Positions 3,129 to 37,178 of a stretch of DNA of 37,178 nucleotides are shown in pieces. Under the pieces are notes generated by a model. The model was not told the DNA's origin, did no database searches, and saw nothing but the letters and a program-made list of their open reading frames with translations. Positions within the stretch are counted from its first letter, which is position 1. Each line of letters starts with the position of its first letter. The position numbers and the translations under genes were made by a program. The DNA is from a virus. The DNA lies in the IMG/VR virus record IMGVR_UViG_3300000062_000013, positions 1 to 37,178 of that record; one strand, 5' to 3'.

Positions 3129-3142
3129 AAAAGGTGTTAAAA

Positions 3143-4765
3143 ATGGCAACCGTAAACGATTACGATTCTTTGGCTCTTGCGCTTCATTATGATTCTATCC
3201 ATAATGTCAGCAAATCATTGCCGCATAATCCTGCCGCTTCGGGTTGGAATGACATTTCTGGTAATAATAGAAATGGAACGTTTGCCACAAGCGGTTTTGA
3301 ATGGATTGATGAAAAAGGATTAAGATTCAACGGCGGGCAACGCTTAACATATTCAGCTTCGGGAATAACGATTAACCGAAGTTATACAATGTCGGTTTTA
3401 TTTAAACCCGTATTTGTTGGCTCATATCCACGTTTATTTGCAGAAAATACATTTCCCACGTTGTATTTAAGAACAAATGATTCTAATTTTACATACGGTG
3501 TTTATTCGCATGGTATTGATACCAATTATTTGGACCCGAACGGGCAACCAATTAGACCAATTGAAAACGATTGGAACCACGCTACCGTTGTTTATAATTA
3601 CGATACAAAAACTTTAAAACTTTATGTAAACGGTTTACTCGTTTCGACAAGAACAAATTTAACAACAACGGCAACGAATCAAAACATAGCTTATTTGGGT
3701 GCACGCTCTCAAAATGATAGATTTTTTACAGGTTCGATAAGTACCTTTATGCTATATGAAAGAGCGTTATCCGATACCGAAGTTTTAAATAATTATAAAA
3801 TCGATTATGAAAGATACGTAGTTGAGCCCGAACCCGAACCGCCAGAACCAATAACGGATACACCTATAAAAGTAATTGAAGGTATGTTTGAAAGTTCCCA
3901 AAATGGCTATGAGTGGGACATTTCTATTTTAAAATCTGAATTTTCAGAACGTCCGCCGTTTTTGATATTTTCAGATAATCAGAAAAATCCCCTTTATTTT
4001 AATCTCGAAAAAGAAACGGCAACAACATTATTTTATACCGTCCGTTTAAACGTTGTTGCCGGATTAAATGAAGTCTATATTTATGCTGCTGATAGCGATA
4101 AAAGCGATGAACGAAAAACATTTACAGAATTTACATCTTTTGCAAATGGGTTGCCGTGGGGTTGGCAAACAGCACCACACAGCGGCACATTATCAAGCCA
4201 AAATGATTTTAATAGTTTACAATGGGTTAATAATTTGGGTACTTTTTGGTTTGCAGAAAACGGATTTTTAAGACATCAAGGTGGCGATTCCTTTTTAAGA
4301 CCGCCTTTGCGCATGACGGAAGAAAGCAAGGGATTTACTTATGAATCGTTATTAGAATGTTTACCACATAACACTTATTGGATTTTTGGTTTCGGTTCAC
4401 GCAATACCAGTGCCGGAAATCATGCAGACGGTATTAATTGTAGAGATGCCTCAATGAGTGAGGTTTTTAATGCCATTAATGCCGTTTCATTTGGAAATTT
4501 CAATATTGAATCAACCCTTACAAAATTTGTTGCAGGTTTTTCCGTTTATGAAAACTCCGGAAAAGCGTATTTAATAAGAGAATCAACTTATACAAAATTC
4601 CAAAGTAACGAAGGCGTAAGAACTAATGACATTTCCCAAACGCGATTTTCTTTAAAATATTGGGGCGGTTATCAACAATCGCGTTGGTATTGGATGAGAA
4701 AAAGGCATAACCCGATACCGAACACGTTTATTATTAAAGATTATGAGCCCCCGATTCCCGAATAG
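3143..4765 (+). CDS. Tail fibre / receptor-binding protein with concanavalin-A-like (LamG) lectin domain; ends at an in-frame TAG
   Basis: ATG at 3143 is preceded by AAAAAGGTG. The N-terminal region (GLRFNGGQRLTY ... WNHATVVYNYDTKTLKLYVNGLLVS ... FMLYERALSDTEV) fits the Laminin_G_3 pattern common in phage fibres. An EPEPEPPEP linker follows. The apparent stop is TAG at 4763..4765, and the frame stays open into 4811..5206. Confidence 0.65.
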   Translation: MATVNDYDSLALALHYDSIHNVSKSLPHNPAASGWNDISGNNRNGTFATSGFEWIDEKGLRFNGGQRLTYSASGITINRSYTMSVLFKPVFVGSYPRLFAENTFPTLYLRTNDSNFTYGVYSHGIDTNYLDPNGQPIRPIENDWNHATVVYNYDTKTLKLYVNGLLVSTRTNLTTTATNQNIAYLGARSQNDRFFTGSISTFMLYERALSDTEVLNNYKIDYERYVVEPEPEPPEPITDTPIKVIEGMFESSQNGYEWDISILKSEFSERPPFLIFSDNQKNPLYFNLEKETATTLFYTVRLNVVAGLNEVYIYAADSDKSDERKTFTEFTSFANGLPWGWQTAPHSGTLSSQNDFNSLQWVNNLGTFWFAENGFLRHQGGDSFLRPPLRMTEESKGFTYESLLECLPHNTYWIFGFGSRNTSAGNHADGINCRDASMSEVFNAINAVSFGNFNIESTLTKFVAGFSVYENSGKAYLIRESTYTKFQSNEGVRTNDISQTRFSLKYWGGYQQSRWYWMRKRHNPIPNTFIIKDYEPPIPE

Positions 4766-4810
4766 GATTTTATACCAATCCGTTTTTGGACTGGCACAAG
4801 AACCGATTAT

Positions 4811-5206
4811 GTGAATGCGGAAGATTATAATAGAATTTCCAATAACATAGCCATAGTTAATGAAATTTATTCACGCCTCGGATATGTCGGCGAGCTCCGA
4901 CCAATGCGATGCGATTGGGATATATACCCCCTATGCATGACTTTTAAACAGTATTGGGCGAATATGCGCTTAAACATACAGGACCTTTACTTAATGTTTC
5001 CGTATGCTAAAATTTTTCCAAACGCTCCCCTGTATCCGTTATTTAATCCGCCTGGGGTTTTAAATCCTGTGGAAAGATTAACGGCAGACTTATTAAACGC
5101 TATGGAAATTACGCTTAAAAATTTATATGAATTTTCAATATCATTTGACCGCTTACCGATTTTACTTACAGAAAACCGTATGCGTCAAAGAATTGTTAGG
5201 AAGTGA
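4811..5206 (+). CDS. Tail-fibre C-terminal segment; probably the read-through continuation (from 4766) of 3143..4765 rather than an independent gene
   Basis: Same frame as 3143..4765 with no stop between 4766 and 4810. The only candidate start is a GTG with no SD. The FWTGTRTDYVNAEDYNRISNN motif (the DxNRIxxN type seen in Firmicutes-phage fibre proteins) begins upstream of that GTG. Confidence 0.55.
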   Translation: MNAEDYNRISNNIAIVNEIYSRLGYVGELRPMRCDWDIYPLCMTFKQYWANMRLNIQDLYLMFPYAKIFPNAPLYPLFNPPGVLNPVERLTADLLNAMEITLKNLYEFSISFDRLPILLTENRMRQRIVRK

Positions 5207-21632: not shown

Positions 21633-21932
21633 TTAATTTTGGTATGCTGACAATGCGAAAGTTATATTTTCATCGTTAATAGTAACGATGTAGTATGTTA
21701 TTACTTTTTGTCCTTTGCAGCCTGTTTGTATGCATTGGTATGCGCCGTATAATTCCGGTGTGATGTTGTTTTCTGGTGGGAATCTTATAGCGCTGTCGCC
21801 TATGTTTAACGGTTGTCTGTTTGAAATATTGAAGACATCGCGGAAAAACTTGGTTATTTTTTTGCCGTTTCTGCCATCGTCATTTTCATTTATTAATCGT
21901 TCGGTTAGTTGTGCAATTTTTTCGATTTGCAT
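21633..21932 (-). CDS. Hypothetical protein, first gene of the leftward early operon
   Basis: 99-aa ORF with a strong SD (AAGGAGGCAAAAAATG). Confidence 0.6.
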   Translation of the reverse strand: MQIEKIAQLTERLINENDDGRNGKKITKFFRDVFNISNRQPLNIGDSAIRFPPENNITPELYGAYQCIQTGCKGQKVITYYIVTINDENITFALSAYQN

Positions 21933-22002
21933 TTTTTGCCTCCTTAAAAATACTATATTGAGTATGGCATTTATAGTATATATATTTAACTATTTCTTTT
22001 TT

Positions 22003-22019
22003 CCGTTTATAATAAACGG
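22003..22019. repeat. Palindrome copy P8, CCGTTTATAATAAACGG
   Basis: Lies about 70 nt upstream of the first leftward early gene (start 21932), at the edge of the ORF-free control region. Confidence 0.95.
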
Positions 22020-22035
22020 TTTTTGTTTGTTTTAA

Positions 22036-22110
22036 TTTGTTTTGATTTTCGGTATTTTCTTTATTTTGGATTTTTGAATTTCGTTTTATTTTTTTTTTGA
22101 TATTTTTTAA
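22036..22110. promoter_or_regulatory. Extremely A/T-rich tract (includes T10 at 22089..22098), candidate DNA-unwinding element
   Basis: Read directly. Lies next to the iteron cluster and the replication genes. Confidence 0.4.
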
Positions 22111-22115
22111 ATATC

Positions 22116-22558
22116 GTAAGGAGTGTAAGGATTTTGTAAGGTAATTTTCGTTATTGGGAGAAGTTCCTTACAGACCTTACAAACATTACAGTATAAAATA
22201 GTATATTGTCTATATTACCTTATATGCTAACATAGAGTATATGTTGCTTTGCACAGAAACTAAATTGAAAAAATTCTGTAAGGTCTGTATGGAGTTCTCT
22301 TGGTATTGAAAATCACCTTACACTTTCTTACACTTTGATGTGTAAGGCGTTTTAAAAATCAAATCAAATCAAATCAAATCATAAAAAAAAGTTTGTTTTT
22401 AGGATACTAATAGTACCTATAGTCTTTAGAATGAAAATTATTGTCAATAATGCGTTTTGCAAATTTTTGAAAAAGGGGCTTAAATTTATGTGTTTTTATA
22501 CTCATAAAATTCTGTAAGGTTTGTAAGGAATGTTTATCGCTGACGTTTTTTCCTTACA
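22116..22558. repeat. Iteron-like cluster of TGTAAGG / CCTTACA heptamers (candidate origin or operator array)
   Basis: Ten perfect copies. Forward copies: 22124, 22135, 22277, 22341, 22513, 22522. Reverse copies: 22166, 22175, 22316, 22552. Also GTAAGG at 22116 and several one-mismatch copies. The 15-mer AAAATTCTGTAAGGT occurs twice (near 22270 and 22507). The region has no ORF of 60 aa or more. Confidence 0.7.
22356..22380. repeat. Pentanucleotide microsatellite (AAATC)x5
   Basis: Read directly. Followed by AT, so it ends in AAATCAT, the heptad repeated in the 28-mers at 25020 and 29575. Confidence 0.95.
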
Positions 22559-23076
22559 ATATTCATAAATCGCTATGGGGCTGATAACTGTTATTTTTTG
22601 GCAATTTTTGATTTTTCAATTTTACTTTTTTTGCTTTTGTGATTCTTTGGCAATTTTAAAATCGTCCAAACGGTCCAAAAACAAGGCTAAAATGAACGAA
22701 TATGATTTAATATAGTTTTGTATGACTTAATCGCCGAACACTTGCCAGCTGTCAGCAATGCAATTTCGTTATTTGGAAAGGTTGTTTAAAAACGATAGCG
22801 GAAAACGTAAAAGATAAGAGCCGAATAAAACAATAAATTTATATATCATATATGCGTATAGTAACGTGCTGTAAAGTTCCAAATCTTTCTTGCTTTAGAT
22901 TCGGATACCCTCTCAAAAAAGTCATGATTGCCGCTGTTGTTTTTCAGATGATGACAGCGGTTCAAACTTATCAAAAACGATAACAGCAAACACCTTTTGT
23001 TTTCAAAACCTCCATTTTTATTTTTTTCAATATCTTTAAATAGTTCTGCCGCTTATTCTTTTTTGGTGATTTTAAA

Positions 23077-23547
23077 ATGAATGAATTTCTTTTAAAACTG
23101 TTTAAACCGATTGCAAAAGCAGTCGCCGCAGACCGCCGCGAACATTGGGCAAAACGCCTTGACAGCGGCGGACGGATTACATCCCGCGAATTGAAAGACG
23201 CAACGAATAACCGCGTTATGTTGCGAACAGCCGATACCGAATATAAAATTATTTCATATCCGGCATTTTTAGAATATATCCGAGAAGATGATACGGCAGA
23301 CTTTGTTTATCAGCCGGAAGGCGTTTTTGATTGCGACAATTTCGGCGCCGTTTTCGATGGTCGTATTAAAGAAATGGGCAATTTCAGTTGCGGGCGTATT
23401 CATGGCTATTTTACATGGGTAGAGGGCTATCACGAATGCAATTTAATTTATACGACAATGGGCTACATTTTATATGAGCCGCAGAACCGCAAAATTTACC
23501 GTTTTGATGAAGATATGACCCGCATTTCCGAAGTCGCTTTAATGTAA
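23077..23547 (+). CDS. Hypothetical protein (orphan, locally G+C-rich); possible Cys/His papain-like fold, speculative
   Basis: 156-aa ORF with GGTGA SD. VFDCDNFGAVF ... GYHECNLIY is loosely reminiscent of transglutaminase/NlpC-type Cys-His cores. Two 60-nt lines I counted (23101..23220) each have 32/60 G+C, well above the rest of the genome. Confidence 0.55.
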   Translation: MNEFLLKLFKPIAKAVAADRREHWAKRLDSGGRITSRELKDATNNRVMLRTADTEYKIISYPAFLEYIREDDTADFVYQPEGVFDCDNFGAVFDGRIKEMGNFSCGRIHGYFTWVEGYHECNLIYTTMGYILYEPQNRKIYRFDEDMTRISEVALM

Positions 23548-28406: not shown

Positions 28407-29177
28407 ATGTCCCCTGGTTTAGAATTTTACGATTTGACCGTTCAGGCAGAAATTTATGATGTCATTGCCGATATTGAAAATGGTATGCTTATGAATATTG
28501 GAAAAGTATTTAGAAGCAATAAAAACGATATCGGCAGCGTTCAATGGGAAATAGAAAAATTATCAATGGCGGGCAGACTTACGCGGTCAAATTTAAATGT
28601 GATAGCGGCAAACGCTGACAGGTCCTATAAAGCTATTGAAAAAGAATTTATCGCTATGGGGCATACTGTTATAAAAAATAATACAGCTTTATTAAAAAAT
28701 ACCGTATCAGTCGGTAATATGCAAGCTGTGGATAATATCGCAAAAGCGTATGCGAAAAACGCGTACAGCGGCGTTAATTTATCCAATACGGCGGCATTAC
28801 AGGCTGCCAATCGCGAATTTATAAACGTTGTAAATAAAACTGTCGTTTCGGTATCTCGCGACATTGTAACACCGCAAGAAGCTTTAAAACAGGCATTAAG
28901 CGACTTAGGCGGTAGCGGTTTAAAAATTGATTATGTAAGTGAAAGTGGGCGACGCACTAGCACTACTTTGGATGTTGCCGTTAGGCGTGATATAAGAACG
29001 ACATCGGCACAGGTTAGTCGTGAAATTCAACTTTCCAAAAATGAAGAATGGGGGGTTGATTTAATTGAAATTTCCAGTCATTACGGAGCCCGTCCGAAAT
29101 GTGAAGAATGCCAAGGGAAAATATATTCGCTATCGGGACAATCTACAAAATACCCAGCGTTTTCAGAATCGACATAG
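28407..29177 (+). CDS. Minor capsid / head-morphogenesis protein (Phage_min_cap2 / SPP1 gp7-like), N-terminal part ending at an in-frame TAG
   Basis: Sits directly after the portal gene. Ends ...SSHYGARPKCEECQGKIYSLSGQSTKYPAFSEST then TAG at 29175..29177. The conserved block continues in the same frame downstream. Confidence 0.7.
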   Translation: MSPGLEFYDLTVQAEIYDVIADIENGMLMNIGKVFRSNKNDIGSVQWEIEKLSMAGRLTRSNLNVIAANADRSYKAIEKEFIAMGHTVIKNNTALLKNTVSVGNMQAVDNIAKAYAKNAYSGVNLSNTAALQAANREFINVVNKTVVSVSRDIVTPQEALKQALSDLGGSGLKIDYVSESGRRTSTTLDVAVRRDIRTTSAQVSREIQLSKNEEWGVDLIEISSHYGARPKCEECQGKIYSLSGQSTKYPAFSEST

Positions 29178-29483
29178 GGCGAACCCGATGGGCTTTTCGG
29201 TATCAATTGCAGGCATACATTTTATCCGTTTGTGGACGGCGTTAGCTCGCAACGTAATTTTCCGGTAGATGAAGAAGAAAACAAACGTATTTATGCTGAA
29301 AGTCAAATGCAGCGCTCGCTTGAGCGTGATATTCGTTCTGCAAAGCGTGAAGAATTAACTTTGAAGGCTGCCGGCATTGATTCATCGGCGGCTCATCAAC
29401 GCGTAAAAGAAACACAGGCGGATATGCGCAAATTTGTAAATGAAACAGGGCGAACCCGTGAACGGACCCGCGAATTAATTTAA
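29178..29483 (+). CDS. C-terminal continuation of the minor capsid / head-morphogenesis protein (ORF track lists 29232..29483 from a GTG)
   Basis: Same frame as 28407..29177 with no further stop. 29178 onward reads GEPDGLFGINCRHTFYPFVDGVSSQRNFP. This is the conserved GLxGxNCRH core of the family, and it lies upstream of any possible start codon. Confidence 0.65.
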   Translation, partial: GEPDGLFGINCRHTFYPFVDGVSSQRNFPVDEEENKRIYAESQMQRSLERDIRSAKREELTLKAAGIDSSAAHQRVKETQADMRKFVNETGRTRERTRELI

Positions 29484-32400: not shown

Positions 32401-32925
32401 ATGGATAATTTAATAGGTTATGTTTTTGGAAACAATTTATCAAGTCCGCTTACAGTAGCGGCAGCTTGGTTATTTGGTTTCATTGGAACATTCATCGGCT
32501 TTTGTTTCGGTAATTGGTGGGGGCTCATCATCATTCTTTTATTTTTGATGTTTGCCGATACCATTATTGGAATTGCAGCAGCTCGGAAATTGGGCGAACC
32601 CGTAACAAGCGAAACATTTTGGGAAAAATTCTTTTGGCATAAAGTCATCGGATACGGTTTTGCTATTGGAATTGCGGTTTGTTTTGATAAATTTATTTTG
32701 GTTTATCTGACAAACGGTATTGATTTGATTTCGTTTGTTAATTGGATTCCGTTTGCGGACGAAATTGTCGCGTTCCTCATTACTGTTATTATGGTTTCTT
32801 GGTTAATTTTTAAAGAAACATGGTCCGTTATTGAGAATTTATCAATTATTGATTCCAAAATAATTCCGTCGCCTATCAAAAAGGCAGTATTAAAAATGAT
32901 GGGTATATTTAACCCCGAAGATTAA
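32401..32925 (+). CDS. Holin-family membrane protein (Phage_holin_4_1 / TcdE-like)
   Basis: Several hydrophobic helices. MFADTIIGIAAARKLGEPVTSETF parallels the DT(I/L)xGxxxAxK..S motif of this holin family. The C-terminal ETWSVIENLSII..IPSPIKK parallels its E.xSIxEN...P motif. Confidence 0.6.
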   Translation: MDNLIGYVFGNNLSSPLTVAAAWLFGFIGTFIGFCFGNWWGLIIILLFLMFADTIIGIAAARKLGEPVTSETFWEKFFWHKVIGYGFAIGIAVCFDKFILVYLTNGIDLISFVNWIPFADEIVAFLITVIMVSWLIFKETWSVIENLSIIDSKIIPSPIKKAVLKMMGIFNPED

Positions 32926-35277: not shown

Positions 35278-35288
35278 GAGGTGTTTTT

Positions 35289-37178
35289 ATGAGTGATTCC
35301 GACGGAAAAGTAACAATTGAAGTTATAGCCGATAATAAAAAAGCGCTGAAAACAATTCAAGAAACCAAAGAAACATATAAGAAAGGCGGCGCCGATATCG
35401 AAAAAGATTTTTCTGCAAATCTAAAAGATGTAGAAAAATCTTTTGAATCGTTAGGCGAAGAAGCTAATGATTCAATGGATAAAATTAATAGCGGCGGCAA
35501 TGAATCGAGCGACAAACTTAATAAAGTGATGACAGGCGCAACGGTTGCAATCGGCGCCGCATTTGCAGCTATGGCAGCTGTTGCGGTTGCTGCTTTGGTT
35601 CAAATTTCCAAAGAAAGTTTAAAACTTTTTGTGTCTTATGATGACGCTTTGAGAGAAATGCAAACCGAAATTGATATGAGTACAGCGGAGGGCGTTGCTG
35701 ATTTTGAACAATTGAAAGACGCAATTAGAGAAGTCGGCGTAACTACAAAATTCACAGCTTCCGAAGCGGCAGACGCAATGAATATTTTGGTAAGCGCGGG
35801 GTATAGTGCTGCTGATAGCGTTTATATGTTAAATGAAGCGGCTAAAATGGCAACCATTACTAAAATGAGTTTAGCCGATACCGTTAATTTATTGGATAAT
35901 TCGATTACCGTTTTGGGTTTAGACGCTTCACAAACAGGCGGATTCATTGATAAATTAGCTAAAGCTTCTTTGGACGGTAAAGCGTCAATGAGCGAACTTA
36001 GCGAATCTTTGGAAGGCGTTGGAACATTAATGAGCTCCGCAAACCAAGATATAGATAAAATGACTGCCGCTTTCGCTTTGTTATCAAATGAAAACATAAA
36101 AGGCGCTGAAGCAGCAGGCACCATGAAAAATCTTATTATTGGATTACAAAAACCGACAACCGAAGCGGCAGACAGTTTGAAAAAATTGGGCGTATCCGTT
36201 TATAACACAGACGGAACAATGCGCGACGTTTTGGATATTATAACAGATTTAAATACGGCTACGGCAGACTTGGACGCGAAAAGTAAAGATGATATCTTCA
36301 ATAATTTATTTTCAAAAAGGGACGTAGTTGCCGTTCAAGGTTTAATGCGTCAGATTGATAAAGATAGCGGGCAACTTTATACAAATCTCGTTGAAAATTC
36401 GGAAGGAGCCGCCGCTGCAATGGCTGAAACGTTAGAGGGCGGCGTTGGTGGATTAATTCGGTCATTTAAAGGTATGGCGGAAGAAATGAAATTAACAATA
36501 GGTGAGCCGCTAGCGGATATTATGAATGATATTTTACCAATTGTAAAAGAAGCGTTTAGCGAAATAATGACAGCCGTTAAAGGTTTCTTTGAAGCGTTTA
36601 CACCCGAACAAATGGAAGCGCTTAAAAACGCTATCGGTTATATTGTTGAATATGCGAAAATCGCTATATTGCATTTGATTAATATTGCAACCGTAATAAT
36701 TCCGTTGTTGGCTGACGGTTTTGTTTTAATTATGCGTTTAATTTCTCCAATTTTAGATATCGGGTTAAAGATTTTTAAATTATTGTCTGTCGGTATCGTT
36801 GAAGCGTATAAATTAGTGGCTTCTGCTGTTCGTTTATGGTGGAAACAAGTAAATGATTTATATACAGTAGTCAAACCCGCTTTAACTTTTGTTTATGATA
36901 TGTTAAATGTTATTTTGGATGAAATGACAAAAATTTACGATGTCGGCAAAAGTGTTTTAAGCGCTTTGGGATATGAATTTAAAGAAACTGAAACTTCAAT
37001 ATCAGGCGTAACCGAAGAAATACAAAATGTTAAAAATGAATTAACAGCCCTTGACGGAACAACTGCGAACGTTACGGTTAATACCAATTATTCAAGTTCC
37101 GGCGGTGGTGGGGGCGGCGGCGGATTTTCTGGCGGTGGTGGGGGCGGTGGCTCCGGAAGTGGTAGCGGCGAAGTTATT
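35289..37178 (+). CDS. Tail tape measure protein, N-terminal 630 codons (open at window end; continues at base 80 after collapsing the terminal overlap)
   Basis: ATG at 35289 with GGGAGG SD. No stop through 37178 (1890 nt, exactly 630 codons). Ala-rich helical and hydrophobic segments are typical of tape measures. Not in the ORF track because it has no stop inside the window. Confidence 0.8.
   Translation, partial: MSDSDGKVTIEVIADNKKALKTIQETKETYKKGGADIEKDFSANLKDVEKSFESLGEEANDSMDKINSGGNESSDKLNKVMTGATVAIGAAFAAMAAVAVAALVQISKESLKLFVSYDDALREMQTEIDMSTAEGVADFEQLKDAIREVGVTTKFTASEAADAMNILVSAGYSAADSVYMLNEAAKMATITKMSLADTVNLLDNSITVLGLDASQTGGFIDKLAKASLDGKASMSELSESLEGVGTLMSSANQDIDKMTAAFALLSNENIKGAEAAGTMKNLIIGLQKPTTEAADSLKKLGVSVYNTDGTMRDVLDIITDLNTATADLDAKSKDDIFNNLFSKRDVVAVQGLMRQIDKDSGQLYTNLVENSEGAAAAMAETLEGGVGGLIRSFKGMAEEMKLTIGEPLADIMNDILPIVKEAFSEIMTAVKGFFEAFTPEQMEALKNAIGYIVEYAKIAILHLINIATVIIPLLADGFVLIMRLISPILDIGLKIFKLLSVGIVEAYKLVASAVRLWWKQVNDLYTVVKPALTFVYDMLNVILDEMTKIYDVGKSVLSALGYEFKETETSISGVTEEIQNVKNELTALDGTTANVTVNTNYSSSGGGGGGGGFSGGGGGGGSGSGSGEVI
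37100..37178. repeat. Terminal overlap, identical to 1..79
   Basis: See 1..79. Confidence 0.95.

Follow-up and report, generated by a model that had tools for sequence, protein, structure and literature searches.

It has been previously reported that several groups of bacteriophages, among them crAss-like, Lak, Garnet/Topaz and other clades, read the stop codon TAG as sense (genetic code 15; Borges et al., bioRxiv 10.1101/2021.08.26.457843), and metaproteomics has given proof of TAG recoding in crAss-like phages (PMC9523058). The TAG-recoded group includes small genomes of 24-25 kb, and a suppressor tRNA is detectable in only 40% of TAG-recoded genomes (bioRxiv 10.1101/2021.08.26.457843). Here we analyzed positions 1 to 37,178 of the IMG/VR virus record IMGVR_UViG_3300000062_000013 (the whole stretch of 37,178 nucleotides, hereafter the window), in which the gene for minor capsid protein 2 (min-cap) is interrupted by an in-frame TAG, and we find it probable that this TAG is translated. 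To our knowledge, Gln alone has been described as the residue inserted at recoded TAG codons of phages. Laboratory phages with classical amber (sus) mutations are grown on suppressor hosts, and programmed read-through yields C-terminally extended virion proteins, as in Qbeta A1 via UGA or, for gag-pol of murine leukemia virus, via UAG. We know of no established case of such stop-codon read-through in tailed double-stranded DNA phages, which usually use frameshifting.

The min-cap gene and the parts into which the TAG divides it are as follows.

28407 to 29483, plus strand: minor capsid protein 2 gene in a gp7/MuF-like position, 358 codons including the in-frame TAG, with a single PF06152 match across the TAG
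29175 to 29177, plus strand: the in-frame TAG, codon 257 of the min-cap gene, aligned with a nearly invariant Tyr after an S-T-S motif
29178 to 29480, plus strand: the C-terminal 101 codons of the min-cap gene (GEPDGLFGINCRH ... RTRERTRELI), which can be made only via TAG read-through

The frame starts at ATG 28407, reads ...KYPAFSEST up to the TAG (residues ...SSHYGARPKCEECQGKIYSLSGQSTKYPAFSEST upstream of it), continues as GEPDGLFGINCRHTFYPF... and ends in TAA at 29481 to 29483 with no further stop, so that the junction is FSEST-x-GEPDGLFGINCR. The coordinates, the frame, the TAG and the TAA end that a sequence-only reading of this DNA had described were thereby confirmed. The product up to the TAG has 256 aa, and the joined product, with X at the TAG, has 358 aa. 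Comparison of the joined product with Pfam gave a single alignment to PF06152 (Phage_min_cap2) that spans the TAG in one stretch (residues 15-345 on positions 12-366 of the 366-position profile; E 1.8e-72; 244.8 bits, the cutoff being 26.3). The motifs SSH-GARP-C, QG-I-S-SG and G-NC-H are all found and collinear, and the invariant columns S223, S224, H225, R229, P230, Q236, G237, N267, C268 and H270 are all kept; the sole departure from the conserved columns is the TAG at the Tyr column. Within this one domain, the stop separates the STS block from the GxNC(R/G)H block. The sequence-only reading had assigned an H-x-GARP-x-C...QGK block and a GLxGxNCRH block to one domain, and both the PF06152 match and an alignment of 24 homologues bear this out. 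Its further claim that the downstream part lacks a start of its own also held: the 18 codons between the TAG and GTG 29232 include no ATG, GTG or TTG, and this GTG, the first possible start after the stop, lies 3' of the NCRH motif. These results demonstrate that the in-frame stop within one conserved domain is a genuine feature of the assembly and no artefact of open reading frame (ORF) statistics.

The genomic position of the gene agrees with this assignment. The min-cap gene lies directly downstream of an SPP1-type portal gene (PF05133) in a head module ordered large terminase subunit (TerL, 25494), portal (26922), min-cap (28407), scaffold (29738) and major capsid protein (30381), an order identical in Listeria phage A500 and in two of the relatives described below (L006 and L007). 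As in SPP1 gp7 and other MuF-type minor head proteins, the gene directly follows an SPP1-type portal gene and few copies of its product are needed per virion; unlike the MuF-type proteins, the product belongs to PF06152 and not to PF04233 (Phage_Mu_F), for which no match was found at E<=0.01. A profile search of the PDB gave no match, so no solved structure is detectable by sequence.

We examined the homologues of the min-cap protein and found that they are single proteins. A tblastn search against 50,697 phage records hit 249 records; in 162 of these, one unbroken match covers at least 80% of the query and the annotation names a single protein, of the minor capsid or head. A large protein search returned 369 homologues; among the best 120 of these, all except the window's own 256-aa fragment cover at least 68% of the query (most of them 84-100%), and this fragment, present on one contig, is the only truncated one. 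Full-length homologues are 357-375 aa long, and no homologue split into two genes at the TAG point, a finding that the sequence-only reading had named as a refutation, occurs among the best 120 of 369. The TAG column in the 24 aligned homologues holds Tyr in 19, Phe in two, Met in two and Ile in one, within the motif S-T-S-Y-G-E-P-D-G. The 101 codons after the TAG show an identity to homologues of 0.50-0.59, and the C-part/N-part identity ratios of 1.19-1.85 lie within the 1.03-1.91 of intact pairs. The downstream part thus shows no sign of relaxed constraint in these alignments, as would be expected if the codon is translated or if the change arose very recently. Megablast with the gene as query against the same 50,697 records gave no match and hence no close cultured relative; syntenic intact min-cap genes were found in six metagenomic relatives (L006, L007, L010, L013, L018 and L021). 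Some homologues (P0019, P0045 and P0095) carry C-terminal toxin-type domains (PF14436, PF18451) in a MuF polymorphic-toxin architecture; the window's protein has no such extension.

To place this stop codon in its genome, we considered how TAG is used across the whole window, which can be summarized in one row.

1 to 37178: complete circular genome, TAG unused as terminator, with a 79-nt terminal direct repeat and a tape-measure gene across the ends

The window is a complete, circularly assembled siphovirus genome of ~37.1 kb (GC content 35.7%), as judged from the terminal direct repeat and from the tape-measure gene that runs across its ends. Its 44 curated genes terminate in TAA (35 genes) or TGA (9 genes) and never in TAG. 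As a control we used Listeria phage A500 (GC 36.7%), a standard-code phage whose head and tail genes belong to the same families and in which 8/63 genes end in TAG; from this terminator rate, the probability of finding none among 44 genes is P = 0.0025. Within the true coding frames of the window, only two in-frame TAGs were found, at 29175 and at 4763. The mere presence of an in-frame ORF after a TAG was rejected as evidence by itself: A500 shows such frames by chance at 3 TAG stops, because next genes there often share a frame, and only homology across the stop counts.

We then asked whether in-frame TAGs occur in related phages. Syntenic relatives, low-GC siphoviruses (clade GC ~34-42%), were drawn from ENA, Logan, IMG/VR and JGI metagenomes, one traced source being a landfill biofilm, and the 44 curated window proteins were compared with all relative loci by tblastn (L004 is equivalent to IMG/VR L011/L013, and L012 to L021). 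Records of the clade include IMGVR_UViG_2225789004_000001, IMGVR_UViG_3300028601_000087, Ga0123355_10030600 and ERZ27280802 contig k141_382699. Wherever an alignment ran across a stop in a true coding frame of the relatives, that stop was a TAG. TerL carries the TAG in the same column in three loci (L013:3184, L021:5553 and L018:3184), in the context FLPxGYIENL-TAG-KEYxGVF, at a column that holds AGG (Arg) in the window and AAA (Lys) in other relatives. A TAG in Gp15 is shared by L004 and L012 (EMTCxEQ-TAG-ExFTILL), and L006 has in-frame TAGs in a SNF2 helicase gene and in an HNH-like gene. Including the tail junction and the window's min-cap site, supported TAGs amount to six sites with twelve occurrences in six phages, and each relative has 2-3 supported sites. 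Neither TAA nor TGA was found to interrupt a gene of the relatives with support from homology. A single TGA was rejected as a candidate, since it lies at the end of a high-scoring segment pair (HSP) of 23% identity to a distant phage of 58% GC and is most simply a natural stop. In the UViG relative, no TAG terminator was verified by homology.

Among the three TerL genes the fraction of identical codons is 0.62-0.74, against 0.63 expected from codon usage, which indicates that synonymous sites are saturated; the TAG has nevertheless been kept in all three, and therefore appears to be itself under selection. The 100 nt after the TerL TAG of L013 fold unusually well (z -3.2), which is a single observation. 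The base following the TAG (+4), read by eye, is G at 7/10 sites, which is not decisive. The two L006 genes (ERZ27280802; 433 to 1680 and 2 to 445, both on the minus strand) belong to the replication module and not to the late genes, so that in-frame TAGs of the clade extend beyond structural genes.

The second TAG of the window lies at the end of a tail protein gene.

3134 to 5206, plus strand: tail (LamG-domain) protein gene plus an in-frame conserved module of 146 codons; PF13385 (Laminin_G_3) in the upstream part
4763 to 4765, plus strand: in-frame TAG at the tail junction, after a Pro/Glu-rich linker and directly before the N-terminus of the conserved (D/E)FIPI... module
4766 to 5206, plus strand: helical module of 146 codons, with no canonical start before GTG 4811, which already falls within the conserved N-terminal motif

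The LamG protein (3134 to 4765) ends in the linker ...YEPPIPE followed by the TAG, after which the 146 in-frame codons begin DFIPIRFWTGTRTDYVNAEDYNRISNN. One HSP to L004 crosses this TAG with 37% identity over 480 columns. An exhaustive phmmer search with the module found six relatives only, all short proteins. One of them, P0123 in L002, is encoded by a stand-alone module gene with its own Shine-Dalgarno sequence and ATG (product starting MSEDVSTW-DFIPIRNW), and L002 is the only relative with this arrangement. The layout seen in the window, in which an ORF ends in TAG and is followed in frame by (E/D)FIP... with no start codon, also occurs in L003, L004 and L012 (modules at L003:44-505, L004:7887-8354 and L012:9962-10420). 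Because the same arrangement is present in three other distinct phages, the TAG at 4763 is an inherited and maintained feature. From this layout we consider it to be a read-through site or, less likely, a site of termination and reinitiation. A tblastn search of phages with the 146-aa module gave no match, and a protein-database search with a query spanning the junction found no match and no homologue with a sense codon there. An AlphaFold model of the module (predicted local distance difference test score, pLDDT, 77.6) gave no informative fold against PDB and BFVD, the only matches being weak ones to uncharacterised phage proteins of 160-182 aa. The sequence after the TAG folds with z -0.8, that is, with no stimulatory RNA structure. 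If read through, the junction could serve to extend the variable tail (LamG) protein at its C-terminus in a programmed way.

Taken together, these comparisons suggest that the TAG at 29175 to 29177 is probably translated and that 28407 to 29483 is one working min-cap gene of 358 codons, in a clade that avoids TAG as a terminator and carries rare in-frame TAGs. The sequence-only reading had held that the TAG must be decoded unless it arose by mutation or error. The first part of that claim has gained comparative support from the lack of TAG terminators, the conserved TAG sites, the restriction of interruptions to TAG and the conservation of the 101 downstream codons; the exception that it allowed for, a mutation or base-call error, keeps a minor share of the probability and is taken up below.

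Several results weigh against translation of this codon. ARAGORN found 0 tRNAs in the window, and an Rfam search gave no tRNA-like match even at E<=1. Pfam and PHROG scans of the curated products (~40/44) detected no release factor or aminoacyl-tRNA synthetase. Coding density, estimated with a crude caller, changed from 0.862 under code 11 to 0.872 with TAG as sense (code 15), and it is barely shifted because there are too few TAG sites. The residues found at the TAG columns are Tyr for min-cap, K/R/Q/I for TerL, R/K/D for Gp15, F/E/Q/D/L for the HNH-like gene and L for the helicase, so that no single amino acid is best at all five columns, and Gln is a poor fit at the min-cap column. To these points are added the single occurrence of the min-cap TAG and the Tyr codons at its column in relatives, which we weigh with the amber-mutation explanation.

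The gene anatomy, the confinement of supported interruptions in the clade to TAG, and the conserved TAG sites are direct observations, and they go together with a lack of any detectable phage-borne suppressor tRNA: ARAGORN runs on all relative loci likewise returned no tRNA and no suppressor tRNA. If the min-cap TAG is translated, ribosomes would insert an amino acid at it, and the decoder could come from the host, as a suppressor or other tRNA with a CUA anticodon or through weak termination by release factor 1 (RF1); alternatively, it could be a non-canonical phage RNA that the searches did not detect. Read-through may be partial, and a partial level could suffice for a minor head protein, which is present at about three copies per virion (PMC4493119). 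Partial read-through would also account for the retention of TAGs in late genes; those conserved at the tail junction and within TerL and Gp15 could then act as translational throttles or gates for these genes. A more specific version of this mechanism is tentative: the host would provide the means of decoding, through a resident tRNA(CUA) of amber-suppressor or pyrrolysine type or through inefficient termination by RF1, the selected TAGs would gate late genes, and the min-cap TAG would be a newly arisen member of the set. Two GTDB genome scans, one with the portal and one with the junction-module alignment, found no prophage relative, and therefore no host was inferred; an IMG/VR scan with the portal protein alone returned only a relative of 31% identity.

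Comparison with the code 15 phages shows both shared and distinct traits. As in those phages, in-frame TAGs of the window's clade lie in conserved, mostly late genes (terminase, tail, head), GC is low and TAG is depleted as a terminator. Unlike them, the window has very sparse TAGs (2 sites in 37 kb) with coding density barely changed, and it is a complete genome with no detectable tRNA, release factor or aminoacyl-tRNA synthetase; furthermore, individual TAG sites are kept across synonymously saturated divergence, and the residues aligned to TAG (Tyr; K/R/Q; L) do not point to Gln. On these sequence comparisons, the clade appears to represent a sparse form of phage stop-codon recoding with conserved TAG sites in essential genes.

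The strongest competing explanation, which we regard as unlikely, is a recent amber mutation of a Tyr codon (TAT or TAC to TAG), or a base-call or assembly error, that left a dispensable gp7-like gene truncated at residue 256 and without function. The min-cap gene does resemble the classical amber mutants, in that a one-base change of a Tyr codon to TAG in a structural gene makes the full-length product depend on suppression. Inspection of the sense codon in related phages gave TAT or TAC (Tyr) at the TAG column in all syntenic relatives, one transversion away from TAG, and the TAG itself has been seen once, on one contig of one sample (ENA ERZ27245258, contig k141_1692669). A mutation of very recent origin would likewise have left the sequence downstream of it intact. 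In addition, SPP1 virions without gp7 assemble normally and ~25% of them are infectious, so that a broken gp7-like gene would be tolerable (PMC6316719). Against this explanation, the window differs from amber mutants in coming from a natural metagenomic population in which TAG is avoided as a terminator (P about 0.0025) and in-frame TAGs are conserved in other genes, among them the second TAG at 4763. The relatives tolerate an in-frame TAG in a helicase and in TerL, and no other stop type is supported in them. A random transversion in a Tyr codon would yield TAA just as easily as TAG. TerL is normally indispensable for DNA packaging. The window also does not look like a decaying prophage: it is a complete circle with its own replication genes, and no integrase was detected in its gene annotation.

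A designed partial read-through of the min-cap gene, yielding a useful short form of 256 aa and a long form of 358 aa, seems improbable. The tail-junction TAG has the layout expected of programmed read-through, namely a complete protein, a linker, a stop and then an extra module, kept in 4 phages and stand-alone in L002, and the retention of the TerL TAG despite synonymous saturation suggests that a stop can itself be functional. The min-cap TAG differs from this pattern: it cuts a domain between its STS and GxNC(R/G)H blocks, neither a TAG nor a domain boundary is present at its column in any relative, and the 100 nt after it fold no better than shuffled sequence (z +2.4), so no downstream stimulatory structure accompanies it. 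A stop kept at one position among diverged relatives is seen at junction 4763 and, in the relatives, in TerL and Gp15, but not at the min-cap TAG.

A naturally split gene, in which residues 1-256 and a downstream piece are initiated independently and come together as a working protein, was rejected as highly improbable: gene callers do list two genes, 28407 to 29177 and 29232 to 29483, each with a PF06152 match, but no start codon precedes GTG 29232, initiation there would lose the conserved GINCRH motif, and the homologues are single proteins (coverage of at least 68% among the best 120 of 369, the window's 256-aa fragment excepted). In practice, the two called genes should be annotated as one. 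An old pseudogene was likewise rejected, because conservation downstream of the TAG equals that of intact genes.

Phage recoding has so far been recognised mainly by large gains in coding density and has been tied mechanistically to phage-borne suppressor tRNAs. If TAG in the window's clade is indeed decoded by the host, the clade would exemplify a cryptic kind of stop-codon recoding with few recoded codons, which screens based on coding density would probably miss. Confirmation would imply that recoding is under-counted in viromes, that gene calling under code 11 splits genes such as min-cap or TerL into false pseudogenes, that some hosts or phage factors must decode TAG, and that single conserved stop codons may act as translational control points for late genes.

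The remainder of the window is that of a siphovirus. The head and tail genes comprise the terminase subunits TerS and TerL, an SPP1-type portal, min-cap, scaffold, major capsid protein, connectors, major tail protein, Gp15, tape-measure and tail proteins, and the replication genes encode a DNA polymerase, a D5-type primase, a SNF2 helicase, ERF, a ParB-like protein and a Dam methylase. A non-coding region of ~1.1 kb (21932 to 23077) separates divergent gene blocks and contains TGTAAGG/CCTTACA repeats and an (AAATC)n run; the repeats suggest an iteron-type origin or a regulatory element, and the region does not resemble a tRNA. L006 has a gap of ~1 kb at the equivalent position, with TTACA-type repeats. 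The tape-measure gene extends from 35280 to 37178 and is joined to 1 to 523. The 79-nt terminal repeat lies within its Gly-rich run (GGGGGGGGFSGGGGGGGSGSGSG), a low-complexity repeat that could also mark the site at which the assembly was circularised. Nowhere in the genome was an endolysin gene recognised. The gene at 32401 to 32925, among the head-tail connector genes, encodes a protein of 174 aa that clearly matches Phage_holin_4_1 (PF05105), and this position is common to L004 and L007.
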